In this document: positions 21,311 through 27,735 of the stretch, piece by piece
How positions within the stretch are numbered: position 1 is the stretch's first letter
Layout of the letters: every line of letters begins with the position of its first letter
Source: Escherichia coli
GTDB lineage: Bacteria; Pseudomonadota; Gammaproteobacteria; Enterobacterales; Enterobacteriaceae
Reading direction: 5' to 3' (one strand)
DNA length: 64,000 bases
NCBI RefSeq assembly: GCF_030384885.1
Contig: NZ_CP128613.1
Made by a program: the position numbers and the translations under genes
The notes under the pieces: generated by a model
Databases searched by the model: none
The model's input: only the letters and a program-made list of their open reading frames with translations
What the model was told of the DNA's origin: nothing

Positions 21311-21403
21311 GGTGAGGTGGCCGAGAGGCTGAAGGCGCTCCCCTGCTAAGGGAGTATGCGGTCAAAAGCTGCATCCGGGGTTCGAATCCCCGCCTCACCG
21401 CCA
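21311..21403 (+). tRNA. serV: tRNA-Ser (anticodon GCU)
   Basis: ggtgaggtggccgagaggctgaaggcgctcccctgctaagggagt...ggttcgaatccccgcctcaccgcca: long variable arm, GCT anticodon, terminal CCA. Confidence 0.9.
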
Positions 21404-21406
21404 TTT

Positions 21407-21483
21407 GCATCCGTAGCTCAGCTGGATAGAGTACTCGGCTACGAACCGAGCGGTCGGAGGTTCGAATCCTCCCGGATGCACCA
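21407..21483 (+). tRNA. argV: tRNA-Arg (anticodon ACG), copy 1
   Basis: gcatccgtagctcagctggatagagtactcggctacgaaccgagcggtcggaggttcgaatcctcccggatgcacca, 77 nt, ACG anticodon. Confidence 0.9.
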
Positions 21484-21682
21484 TATTCTCCGAAATCTTC
21501 AGCGATGAAGGTGTCGAAGAGGTGGCGGTACTAACCGCAAGCACCAGGGAGGATAACGTTGCTTTAGCAACGGGCCGAAGGGCGAGCCGTAAGGCGAGTA
21601 ATCCTCCCGGATGCACCATCTCTTACTTGATACGGCTTTAGTAGCGGTATCAAAAAATCTGCAGTAAAGTAAGTTTCCCGAT

Positions 21683-21759
21683 GCATCCGTAGCTCAGCTG
21701 GATAGAGTACTCGGCTACGAACCGAGCGGTCGGAGGTTCGAATCCTCCCGGATGCACCA
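21683..21759 (+). tRNA. argY: tRNA-Arg (anticodon ACG), copy 2
   Basis: Identical 77-nt sequence to copy 1. Confidence 0.9.
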
Positions 21760-21956
21760 TATTCTACGAAATCTTCAGCGATGAAGGTGTCGAAGAGGTG
21801 GCGGTACTAACCGCAAGCACTAGGGAGGATAACGTTGCTTTAGCAACGGCCAGAAGGGCGAGCCGCAAGGCGAGTAATCCTCCCGGATGCACCATCTCTT
21901 ACTTGATATGGCTTTAGTAGCGATATCAATATCAGCAGTAAAATAAATTTCCCGAT

Positions 21957-22033
21957 GCATCCGTAGCTCAGCTGGATAGAGTACTCGGCTACGAACCGAG
22001 CGGTCGGAGGTTCGAATCCTCCCGGATGCACCA
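21957..22033 (+). tRNA. argZ: tRNA-Arg (anticodon ACG), copy 3
   Basis: Identical 77-nt sequence to copy 1. Confidence 0.9.
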
Positions 22034-22231
22034 TATTCTACGAAATCTTCAGCAATGAAGATATCGAAGAGGTAGCGGAATTAACCGCAAGCACCAGGAA
22101 GGATAACGTTGCTTTAGCAACGGCCCGAAGGGCGAGCCGCAAGGCGAGTAATCCTCCCGGATGCACCATCTCTTATTTGATATGGCTTTAGTAGCGGTAT
22201 CAATATCAGCAATAAAGTAAGTTCTCCCGAT

Positions 22232-22308
22232 GCATCCGTAGCTCAGCTGGATAGAGTACTCGGCTACGAACCGAGCGGTCGGAGGTTCGAATCCTCCCGG
22301 ATGCACCA
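22232..22308 (+). tRNA. argQ: tRNA-Arg (anticodon ACG), copy 4
   Basis: Identical 77-nt sequence to copy 1. Confidence 0.9.
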
Positions 22309-22588
22309 TATTCTCCGTAATCTTCAGCGATGATGGCATGGAAGAGGCGATGGTAATCACCGTCTGCTCCAGGGAGGATAACGTTGCGGCAGCAACGGCC
22401 CGAAGGGCGAACGCCAGTGAGTCATCCTCCCGGATGCACCATCTTCTCCAAAAAATCCCCTTCAAAAATATTTCATTTCTAAATAACTATTTTATCCATT
22501 TCCTGAATATTCTTCTCCTTCGCCATCAGCGACAAAATCAAGCAATTACGCTAAAGTAGCGTCATATTTTTCGACTTGCGAGAAGACC

Positions 22589-23625: not shown

Positions 23626-25209
<1,584 letters not shown>

Positions 25210-25216
25210 CAGAAAA

Positions 25217-25290
25217 GAAAAAGGCCACTCGTGAGTGGCCAAAATTTCATCTCTGAATTCAGGGATGATGATAACAAATGCGCGTCTTTC
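25217..25290 (-). ncRNA. micA: MicA (SraD) small regulatory RNA
   Basis: Minus-strand reading gaaagacgcgcatttgttatcatcatccctgaattcagagatgaaattttggccactcacgagtggcctttttc matches the MicA sequence I recall, ending in a ggccactcacgagtggcc hairpin plus U-run; lies between gshA and luxS. Confidence 0.8.
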
Positions 25291-25358
25291 ATATACTCAG
25301 ACTCGCCTGGGAAGAAAGAGTTCAGAAAATTTTTAAAAAAATTACCGGAGGTGGCTAA

Positions 25359-25874
25359 ATGCCGTTGTTAGATAGCTTCACAGTCGATCATACCCGGATG
25401 GAAGCGCCTGCAGTTCGGGTGGCGAAAACAATGAACACCCCGCATGGCGACGCAATCACCGTGTTCGATCTGCGCTTCTGCGTGCCGAACAAAGAAGTGA
25501 TGCCAGAAAGAGGGATCCATACCCTGGAGCACCTGTTTGCTGGTTTTATGCGTAACCATCTGAACGGTAATGGCGTTGAGATTATCGATATCTCGCCAAT
25601 GGGCTGCCGCACCGGTTTTTATATGAGTCTGATTGGTACGCCAGATGAGCAGCGTGTCGCTGATGCCTGGAAAGCGGCAATGGAGGACGTGCTGAAAGTG
25701 CAGGATCAGAATCAGATCCCGGAACTGAACGTCTACCAGTGTGGTACTTATCAGATGCATTCGTTGCAGGAAGCGCAGGATATTGCGCGTAATATCCTGG
25801 AACGTGACGTACGCATCAACAGCAACGAAGAGTTGGCGCTGCCGAAAGAAAAGTTGCAGGAATTGCACATCTAG
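25359..25874 (+). CDS. luxS: S-ribosylhomocysteine lyase (AI-2 synthesis)
   Basis: Track ORF 171 aa; metal-binding HTLEH motif. Confidence 0.95.
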
Positions 25875-25918: not shown

Positions 25919-27031
25919 TTACCTGTCAGTCACCCGATATTCCACGCTATGTGCTTCATCAGGTTGAGGAACTTCCAGCCTTGAGGCCATCCGCATCACG
26001 ACCGCTTCAGGAACGGCATACTCGCGCCTGGCATTTTGCTGCTTCCATTGCGCCCATGGCACTTCCAGATAAACGATTTTTACTCGTGCGCCGTAAGCCG
26101 TAAACAGACTGATGAGCTGGCTACGCAGTTGGCGGGTAATGTTCGTTGCATTCCAGATGAACGGCTTTTTCTGGCGTAAAAAAACGCGCGCCTCTTCTTT
26201 TGCCTGTTGCACAATACGCCCGGTCGCGGTTTTGTCGTCCGGGCTGGCATTGATTCGCCGCCGCATATCATCAAGGCTGATAACGTCCATTCCCTGGCAC
26301 TGTTCACTGATATAGCGATCTTTGCCCATACCCGGTAAGCCACACAGCAAAATGACCTCAAAAGGTTCAGCCTCCCAGGGAACAAAATCAGGAGAACTTT
26401 GTTCATGGGTCAGATAATGCCAGCGTGCGGAATCAGACACGAACGAGCGCACTTTTCCCCAACACTGTTGCTCCTGGCAAAATAGCTCGAACAGATCGAT
26501 GCGTTCCAGCATTGATTGCTGATCATGACAATGGCGACCAAGCAGATCGGCACGAGCAAGCAAAGCGAGCAGACGCGTGTCGATACGCATTGCAGCCGTG
26601 AGCAGCAAACGCTCCGGTTCCGGACGTTCTAGTAACCATAGCGGTAACCCATGCAGACGCACCAGTGCAACAATTTGCTCGCGTAGCACGAACGGCGTCG
26701 GGATATCGCGCCATAAAATTTGTCGGGCCGTCAATTCACCCCGACGAGCATGACCAGGAGACTGAATACGTCCGTTTTCCTGCACGGTAGTACTGCGCTT
26801 TTCAACGTCATGCAATAACGCCGCCGCCCATAAAATTTCCTGCTGCTGAGCGGGGAGTTGCTGGAACTCTGGCAGAGCCACGAGTGCATTCAGCACCATT
26901 TCAGTATGCACACCAACGTCGCCTTCACCATGATGCTCCGGGTCTTGCGGCGTATTATGCATATCCTCAACCCAGCTAAAACGCTGGCGTAGCGTCGACC
27001 AGCGTTTGTCGTCGGTAAGTTGCCAAATCAT
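25919..27031 (-). CDS. HD phosphohydrolase fused to a P-loop polynucleotide-kinase-like domain (HD-Pnk-like end-healing enzyme)
   Basis: Track ORF 370 aa: N-terminal HD signature ([10 protein letters not shown] ... LLHDVEK); C-terminal P-loop CGLPGMGKD followed by DDMRRR, the Asp/Arg arrangement seen in T4 Pnk-type 5'-OH kinases; ATGA overlap with the upstream ligase-like gene. Confidence 0.6.
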
Positions 27032-27735
27032 GACTGTTCTCCATAAGCGAACTCATGGGCCATCCGCGCCCGTCGCCAGTGGCGTTTCCAGTGCTCGGTG
27101 GTTTTGACATGATTTTTGCGTACATACTTGAAGACGTTATGCGAAAAGTCAGCGACGGAAAACGCATCACTATTCCGGCTGACAATGCCTTCCAGCGTAC
27201 AGGGTTGTCCGGTTTGCGTATCCCAGGGATCGAACGCACCGCGCGCATTGGTCAGCGCCAGAAAATCACGTTGCCAGCTTTTTTCATCATTCCCCGGCTG
27301 CGGGCCGGAGATTTCGGGAACGCAGGGGAAATCAAACAGAGCGGCGTAAAACTGCACCTCTTCCCAGCTCAGCCACATATCCTGGCAGCGAACGGCAAAC
27401 AGATAAAAATCCTGCTCCAGGGCGCGATATTCAATCGAATGAACGGCATAAAGATTTTCACCAAACAACTCCAGATCGCCGAGATCGTTTTTCAGCAGTT
27501 GCCAGCGTTGGCGAATTTTATAGGTCCATGCCGATTGTGTAGGCGCGGCATGGGAACGGGCAAACACGCCGTAGCGGTTAAGGCAGTTATTTTCACCGTC
27601 GAGTTTTTCAGTATGTACCAACTGCGAAATTGCCTGCATATCTTGCCAGTAACTGGCGTTAATGCGGTCATCGCTGGTGGTGCCAGGGGAGAAGGGGTAA
27701 TGCCAGGTTCTCCCGTATTTACGTTGGGTATTCAT
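27028..27735 (-). CDS. ATP-dependent RNA/polynucleotide ligase-like nucleotidyltransferase, Rnl2-like motif I
   Basis: Track ORF 235 aa: motif I TEKLDGEN (K-x-D-G-x-N), then [12 protein letters not shown] (motif III-like), EGIVSRN (motif IV-like), [10 protein letters not shown] (motif V-like) in canonical order. Confidence 0.6.

Follow-up and report, generated by a model that had tools for sequence, protein, structure and literature searches.

The analysed DNA, hereafter the window, is a 64-kb stretch that runs against the direction of K-12 numbering and carries the region alaS-csrA-gshA-luxS-emrAB. Over 50 kb, 6 mismatches separated it from E. coli 2013C-4282 (NZ_CP027579.1, from position 4726628, plus strand; ~99.99% identity). 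The genes gshA and luxS lie on the plus strand and are separated by a spacer of 149 bp, within which the small RNA gene micA is read from the opposite strand, convergent with gshA and divergent from luxS. The coordinates of all features are given in Table 1. K-12 coordinates were converted as 2840092 minus the window coordinate, a relation derived from the K-12 annotation and the identity alignment. The Term-seq data used throughout were obtained with K-12, in which the spacer sequence is identical, under three conditions: M63, LB at OD 0.4 and LB at OD 2.0.

Table 1. Coordinates of the features in and around the gshA-luxS spacer (window numbering).
Feature	Position	Strand	Basis or remark
gshA CDS (glutamate--cysteine ligase)	23653..25209	+	convergent with micA
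sigma-S luxS P1 promoter inside gshA	25013..25027	+	-10 CTATGAT 25013-25019; TSS G 25027; PMC2956633
U-rich terminator tail UUUUUCUUUUCU	25211..25222	-	fills nearly the entire spacer following the gshA stop
31-nt 3'-3' overlap of MicA (end 25215) and the gshA mRNA end in minimal medium (25245)	25215..25245	both	K-12 Term-seq
micA (MicA sRNA, ~72-76 nt)	25215..25290	-	+1 = G at 25290; Rfam, b4442, Term-seq
Terminator hairpin GGCCACU-CACG-AGUGGCC, 7-bp inverted repeat	25223..25240	both	terminator scan on the minus strand only; folds on both strands
A/U-rich linker AAUUUU between the hairpins	25241..25246	-	unpaired in the fold; A/U-rich in all aligned species
Stem-loop 1, MicA nt 23-44	25247..25268	-	fold and Rfam consensus structure
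5' seed, MicA nt 7-24, pairs with the ompA ribosome-binding region	25267..25284	-	fold, RNAduplex
Proximal luxS 5' UTR	25277..25358	+	published 5' end (R3), PMC2956633, mapped onto the identical sequence
sigma-E-type micA promoter	25297..25323	-	-35 GAACT 25319-25323; -10 TCTGA 25297-25301
AT-rich, UP-element-like tract upstream of the micA -35	25324..25346	-	sequence; putative function
luxS CDS (S-ribosylhomocysteine lyase)	25359..25874	+	divergent from micA; Shine-Dalgarno GGAGG 25347-25351

Two further features of the window were recorded at some distance from micA. Positions 21311..22476(+) hold an array of a tRNA-Ser and four tRNA-Arg genes that consists of four direct repeats, with unit lengths of 274-276 nt and 69-95% identity; the K-12 tRNA-Arg array contains one shortened unit, with an argZ-argY spacing of 139 nt. 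K-12 Term-seq 'orphan' 3' ends fall within the tRNA spacers and ~100 nt past the last tRNA, which suggests stable RNA fragments derived from the spacers or the trailer. Between luxS and emrB lies a two-gene insert (25919..27735, minus strand) that is missing from K-12. Of 5426 complete E. coli genomes, 999 carry it, nearly all of them with only 90-95% identity to the allele of the window. One of its products is a 370-aa 'ATP-binding protein' that has an AAA_33 kinase-like domain at its C-terminus, the other a 235-aa PF09414 RNA-ligase family protein, the two ORFs overlapping by 4 nt. A PADLOC search of the two genes returned no defence-system match, and the predicted pair resembles an RNA-repair cassette consisting of a kinase and a ligase.

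Identity, promoter and structure of MicA

The earlier note on this DNA had placed MicA at 25217..25290(-), in what it called a known arrangement, and had suggested a search with the Rfam covariance model of the family (RF00078). This search returned a full-length match at 25219..25290(-), covering model positions 1-75 of 75. Its score was 83.9 bits, where the gathering score is 41, and its E-value was 1.4e-11 for the whole 64-kb window and 2.2e-12 in a 10-kb search. Among 4227 Rfam models scanned, MicA gave the sole non-tRNA match in the window. The K-12 gene micA (b4442, an ncRNA between luxS and gshA) corresponded to 25218..25290(-), the sequence from 25193 to 25375 being 100% identical to K-12 MG1655, and the MicA 3' end mapped by Term-seq in K-12, 2814877(+), corresponded to position 25215 in all three growth conditions (Adams 2021, PMC7815308 supplementary file 1). 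Position, identity, strand and arrangement were therefore borne out. The distances proposed earlier also held: the RNA starts 68 nt from the luxS ATG (~70 bp had been estimated) and ends 5-8 nt past the gshA stop codon, depending on the choice of 3' end (8 bp had been estimated). The segment 25215..25290(-) is thus almost certainly micA, the Hfq-dependent envelope-stress sRNA of Enterobacterales.

The MicA found here is the textbook sRNA in its usual locus, with unchanged sequence, and is already known. Its match serves mainly as a sanity check on the window and leaves the textbook picture of a sigma-E-dependent repressor of outer-membrane proteins unchanged. In the RefSeq (PGAP) record NZ_CP027579.1, the gshA-luxS spacer carries no ncRNA annotation for micA, whereas the K-12 record has one. 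This is an annotation gap that is silent on biology, in which the automated annotation of the 2013C-4282 genome leaves out a well-characterised sRNA.

Compared with K-12, the 149-bp spacer showed 0 differences and the 4 kb around it 144 mismatches (96.4% identity), a pattern that is consistent with constraint on the gshA-luxS spacer. Of 5426 complete E. coli genomes, 5423 contained a 361-nt query that had the spacer at its centre. As a separate observation, the blood isolate E. coli p10B (L126, NZ_CP103758.1) carries ISEcp1 between gshA and luxS. The break corresponds to window position ~25302, between the sigma-E -10 and -35 elements of micA and within the luxS leader, and is a natural disruption of both the micA promoter and the luxS leader.

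The promoter motif GAACT-N17-TCTGA ends 6 nt upstream of the MicA +1, and it was the sole match to GAACT-N15-18-TCTGA in the 64-kb window. In most loci from Enterobacteriaceae, the tract directly upstream was rich in A and T; read on the plus strand, it forms the stretch of the luxS leader that immediately precedes the Shine-Dalgarno sequence. Sigma-E dependence of micA was reported by three groups (review PMC4618604) and is taken over for this locus from that literature, which concerns the identical K-12 sequence; what the window itself provides is the motif.

The fold of the minus strand consisted of a free 5' end, stem-loop 1, the AAUUUU linker and a 7-bp GC-rich hairpin followed by UUUUUCUUUUCU. 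MicA nt 7-22 were unpaired in both the MFE and the centroid folds. The hairpin, ggccactcacgagtggcc at 25240..25223(-), comprised a 7-bp stem and a 4-nt loop, after which came TTTTTCTTTT. An AAUUUU linker together with a U-tail is the expected Hfq-binding module, and the arrangement in the window (AAUUUU, then the 7-bp GC-rich stem, then UUUUUCUUUU), which was kept across species, would constitute such an Hfq-type 3' module. Candidate small proteins from the 46-48-aa ORFs in this region were rejected: the minus-strand ATG at 25292-25290 straddles the MicA +1, so it lies outside the RNA, and the sole AUG within MicA is not followed by a stop codon before the terminator.

Pairing with ompA was evaluated with RNAduplex, using the ompA leader of K-12 rather than that of the host strain. 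MicA nt 1-30 reached -23.2 kcal/mol with this leader, a value attained by 9 of 500 shuffles, and nt 7-30 paired with ompA positions -45..-5, beside the Shine-Dalgarno region, in agreement with the published target site. Duplexes computed with full-length MicA were dropped, as they gave an unrealistic 65-nt duplex, and the result for the 30-nt seed was kept. The dependence of MicA on Hfq and its targets, including ompA and phoP, have been reviewed (PMC4618604). Going by the literature on the identical locus, envelope (outer-membrane) stress would activate sigma-E and micA would be transcribed. MicA, its A/U linker and U-tail occupied by Hfq, would then use the 5' seed to pair with ompA, phoP and other mRNAs and so lead to a block of translation and to mRNA decay.

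Conservation across Enterobacterales

Homologues were collected by scanning one genome per species for an exact 21-nt seed pattern, which yielded 120 loci. Because an exact pattern was used, these homologues are close relatives, and the invariance of the seed across species follows from the construction of the search. All but one of the loci (119/120) were Enterobacterales MicA genes. The remaining match (L031), in the Omnitrophota MAG JAHFFR010000071.1, had no MicA hairpins and neither luxS nor gshA nearby, and was excluded as a chance match. Upstream, luxS was found in divergent orientation in 117 of the 119 loci, and downstream, gshA was found in convergent orientation in 110 of them, the remaining loci in each case being without enough flanking sequence; the order luxS-micA-gshA was thus kept in every locus with enough flank. 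The sigma-E-type motif, with the same spacing, was present in 113/113 species. In the same 113 species, 6 or more of the first 8 nt in the tail on the MicA side of the terminator stem were T.

Among 88 distinct sequences, 98.3% of the pair cells of the two hairpins were standard pairs, vs. 29-52% when the pairing partners were shifted by 1-3 columns. In stem-loop 1, 97-100% of the cells were paired, and its closing pair showed compensatory changes from G-C to A-U. In the terminator hairpin 99.5% of the cells were paired, the seventh pair covarying between A-U, U-A and G-C. Double changes occurred in 2 of the 14 pairs only, and this count was reached by 73 of 500 shuffles. As judged from the alignment, support from covariation is thin, and this sparseness reflects the close relationship of the homologues.

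Some loci differed in length between the MicA seed and stem-loop 1, where insertions of UCA (3 nt) or UCUCA (5 nt) extended the AUCAUCAUC repeat. These AUCAUCAUC expansions occurred at alignment columns 26-30 (MicA nt 25/26) in Klebsiella, Siccibacter, Erwinia and others, and the loci carrying them included L034, L078, L085, L042 and L122.

Shared hairpin at the gshA 3' end

The earlier note had described the terminator hairpin of MicA as palindromic and as able to terminate gshA from the other side. The palindrome held for the stem, the arms of which form a perfect inverted repeat, but not for the loop, in which the two central bases differ between the strands. The segment 25223..25240 folded equally well on both strands, at -11.0 kcal/mol each. 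A structure of this kind could serve as a canonical bidirectional intrinsic terminator, at which the transcripts of MicA and gshA would both be ended efficiently, and the gshA strand does offer an A-run before the stem and a short A/U stretch after it, the latter being the reverse complement of the MicA linker. The tail that follows the stem on the gshA side (AAAAUUUC / AAAAUUUCAUC / AAAATTTCAT) is, however, without a U-run, and the terminator scan made its call at the hairpin on the minus strand only, with none on the gshA (plus) strand. In the gshA-side tail, T occurred on average 2.1 times in 8 nt across 113 species, and in nearly every case an A-run stood at the start of this tail; a U-tract on this side was sought in these species and was absent in all of them. 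Set against the at least 6 T in 8 nt on the MicA side, this composition points to no selection for a gshA-side U-tract, and by this comparison of sequences the gshA-side tail is not one that evolved, or was selected, as a U-tract.

Mapped 3' ends gave a mixed answer. In K-12 grown in M63, the 'primary' gshA 3' end was located at 2814847(-), i.e., window position 25245, five nucleotides past the stem (GUGGCCAAAAU; stem+5), and its read count was 177654 (supplementary file 1 of Adams 2021, PMC7815308). This end speaks for termination at the hairpin, although Term-seq cannot tell termination from exonucleolytic trimming. Of the three Term-seq conditions, M63 was the only one in which a gshA-sense end was seen at stem+5, whereas MicA ended at stem+8 in all three. 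In LB, the gshA-sense 3' ends were located at 25231, in the loop of the hairpin (OD 0.4), and at 25178, inside the ORF (OD 2.0). The 'primary' end at 25231(+) (GGCCACUCG-3'), lying mid-loop, is unlike the end expected from a terminator or from protection by a hairpin; it could stem from cleavage of a MicA-gshA duplex or from a mapping artefact caused by the near-palindrome.

Published transcript data also bear on the question from two sides. No gshA-luxS polycistron has been reported, which would agree with efficient termination, but transcripts from the sigma-S-dependent luxS promoter P1 inside gshA cross the hairpin and read through micA to give luxS mRNAs of >800 nt (PMC2956633). Hairpin-dependent, collision-assisted bidirectional termination between convergent genes in E. 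coli has been described (bioRxiv 10.1101/2022.10.23.513370) and lends the idea some plausibility. A literature search retrieved nothing specific on MicA with gshA (RIL-seq) or on MicA as a bidirectional terminator.

Taken together, efficient canonical termination of both genes by this hairpin is unlikely. Of the claim that the hairpin terminates gshA, what stood was its formation on the gshA strand and the M63 3' end at stem+5; the tail without a U-run, the scan without a call on that strand, the LB ends in the loop and the ORF, and the passage of P1 transcripts spoke against it. Because a gshA-side U-tract is absent, the LB ends lie elsewhere and P1 transcripts read through, we conclude that the hairpin is a shared and leaky 3'-end structure, and not a demonstrated canonical bidirectional intrinsic terminator. 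For gshA, it may act as a pause site or as a structure that protects the 3' end against exonucleases, and head-on encounters of polymerases possibly help it at the gshA 3' end.

luxS leaders, antisense overlap and related systems

A potential overlap between the micA promoter and the region upstream of luxS had also been proposed, and published data on the identical K-12 sequence confirmed this but showed that it had been understated. The proximal luxS 5' end (R3, ~25277) overlaps the first 14-15 nt of MicA (Udekwu 2010, PMC2956633), so that the luxS leader encloses the entire micA promoter, carried on the opposite strand. The distal promoter P1 is sigma-S-dependent and starts at -332 from the luxS AUG (PMC2956633); its -10 element CTATGAT was found in the window at 25013-25019. 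The P1 leader overlaps MicA fully, and its processing needs MicA and RNase III. Overexpression of MicA turns the P1 and P2 leaders into the shorter R3 in an RNase III-dependent manner, whereas the level of LuxS protein is unchanged (PMC2956633).

Two candidates on the luxS-sense strand were examined separately. A sigma-70 scan gave a single plus-strand match, ATGATA-18-TATACT (25268..25297), where shuffles gave a mean of 0.7; the corresponding start at ~25304 would agree with no published luxS 5' end, and the match was not used. Inside gshA, an RNA candidate of 152 nt, 25027..25178(+), extends from the luxS P1 start to the Term-seq end observed in LB at OD 2.0 (K-12 2814914). In its MFE fold the first 11 nt pair with 25163-25173, and the fold as a whole had z = -1.7. 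The stem had 11/11 pairs in the window, 10/11 in the E. coli reference (L058) and at most 8/11 in most other genera, with scattered compensation only, and was set aside as probably not conserved.

The extent of these overlaps invites the reading that MicA is mainly a cis-antisense RNA on luxS, and perhaps on gshA, acting through overlap and RNase III, with trans repression as a secondary activity. Its basis would be the full complementarity of MicA to the luxS P1 and P2 leaders and the RNase III-dependent conversion of these leaders to R3 upon MicA overexpression (PMC2956633), the location of the micA promoter inside the luxS leader, the linkage of luxS and micA in 117/117 loci with enough flank, and the 31-nt overlap of MicA with the gshA 3' UTR. 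We regard this reading as improbable, since LuxS protein did not change upon MicA overexpression (PMC2956633), conservation within MicA is highest in the seed that pairs with ompA, and experiments have established ompA, phoP and further mRNAs as trans targets (PMC4618604). Confinement of the gene to a 149-bp spacer could by itself suffice to maintain the synteny. MicA as a trans-acting sRNA remains the preferred reading. Judging from the literature on the identical locus, MicA may in addition pair in cis with the long luxS leaders; given the unchanged level of LuxS protein, the importance of this cis effect is uncertain.

A further proposal is that the 31-nt overlap between MicA and the gshA transcript is itself regulatory, so that sigma-E-driven transcription of micA alters the gshA-sense ends and their stability. 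The effect might arise from head-on encounters of polymerases at the shared hairpin, or from RNase III cleavage once MicA has paired with the gshA 3' UTR and the luxS P1 leader. The condition-dependent gshA-sense ends at 25245, 25231 and 25178 are compatible with it, and if true, it would couple envelope stress to glutathione synthesis. We nevertheless hold it to be very improbable. That the region is only a gshA terminator and a luxS leader, or a short ORF, its resemblance to MicA being a silent relic or chance, is effectively refuted, for although 46-48-aa mechanical ORFs overlap it on both strands and the matching RefSeq record NZ_CP027579.1 annotates no RNA gene, this reading is barely conceivable beside the covariance-model E-value of 1.4e-11, the sequence identity to a locus with mapped RNA 5' and 3' ends, the conserved sigma-E motif at the right distance and the 100% identity of the spacer to K-12 against 96.4% for the flanking 4 kb.

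Overlapping bidirectional terminators between convergent genes were reportedly listed by Ju et al. in 2019 on the basis of SEnd-seq. For such terminators, a mechanism combining pausing at the hairpin with collision of RNA polymerases has been proposed (bioRxiv 10.1101/2022.10.23.513370). The micA/gshA hairpin resembles them in being a single hairpin between convergent units, flanked by the 3' ends of both transcripts with a short overlap (31 nt). Unlike them, it has a U-tract on the MicA side only, its gshA-side 3' end varies with the growth condition, and read-through from luxS P1 is documented.

Among the sRNAs that depend on sigma-E, both RybB and MicL are like MicA in having a sigma-E promoter, a 5' seed and a Rho-independent terminator with a U-tail, and in being Hfq sRNAs that repress mRNAs of outer-membrane proteins or lipoproteins (PMC4618604). 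They differ from MicA in sequence and locus, and neither is wedged between two genes so as to overlap both at their ends; of the three, MicA alone has been reported to act both in cis, on luxS, and in trans (PMC2956633). The closest comparison is with MicA of K-12 itself (SraD, RF00078, b4442), with which the locus in the window shares the RNA, the promoter, the spacer flanks, the strand, the neighbours, the structure and the ompA-complementary seed. The host strain differs, and gshA-luxS is 96.4% identical, whereas the element itself is that of K-12 without any difference.
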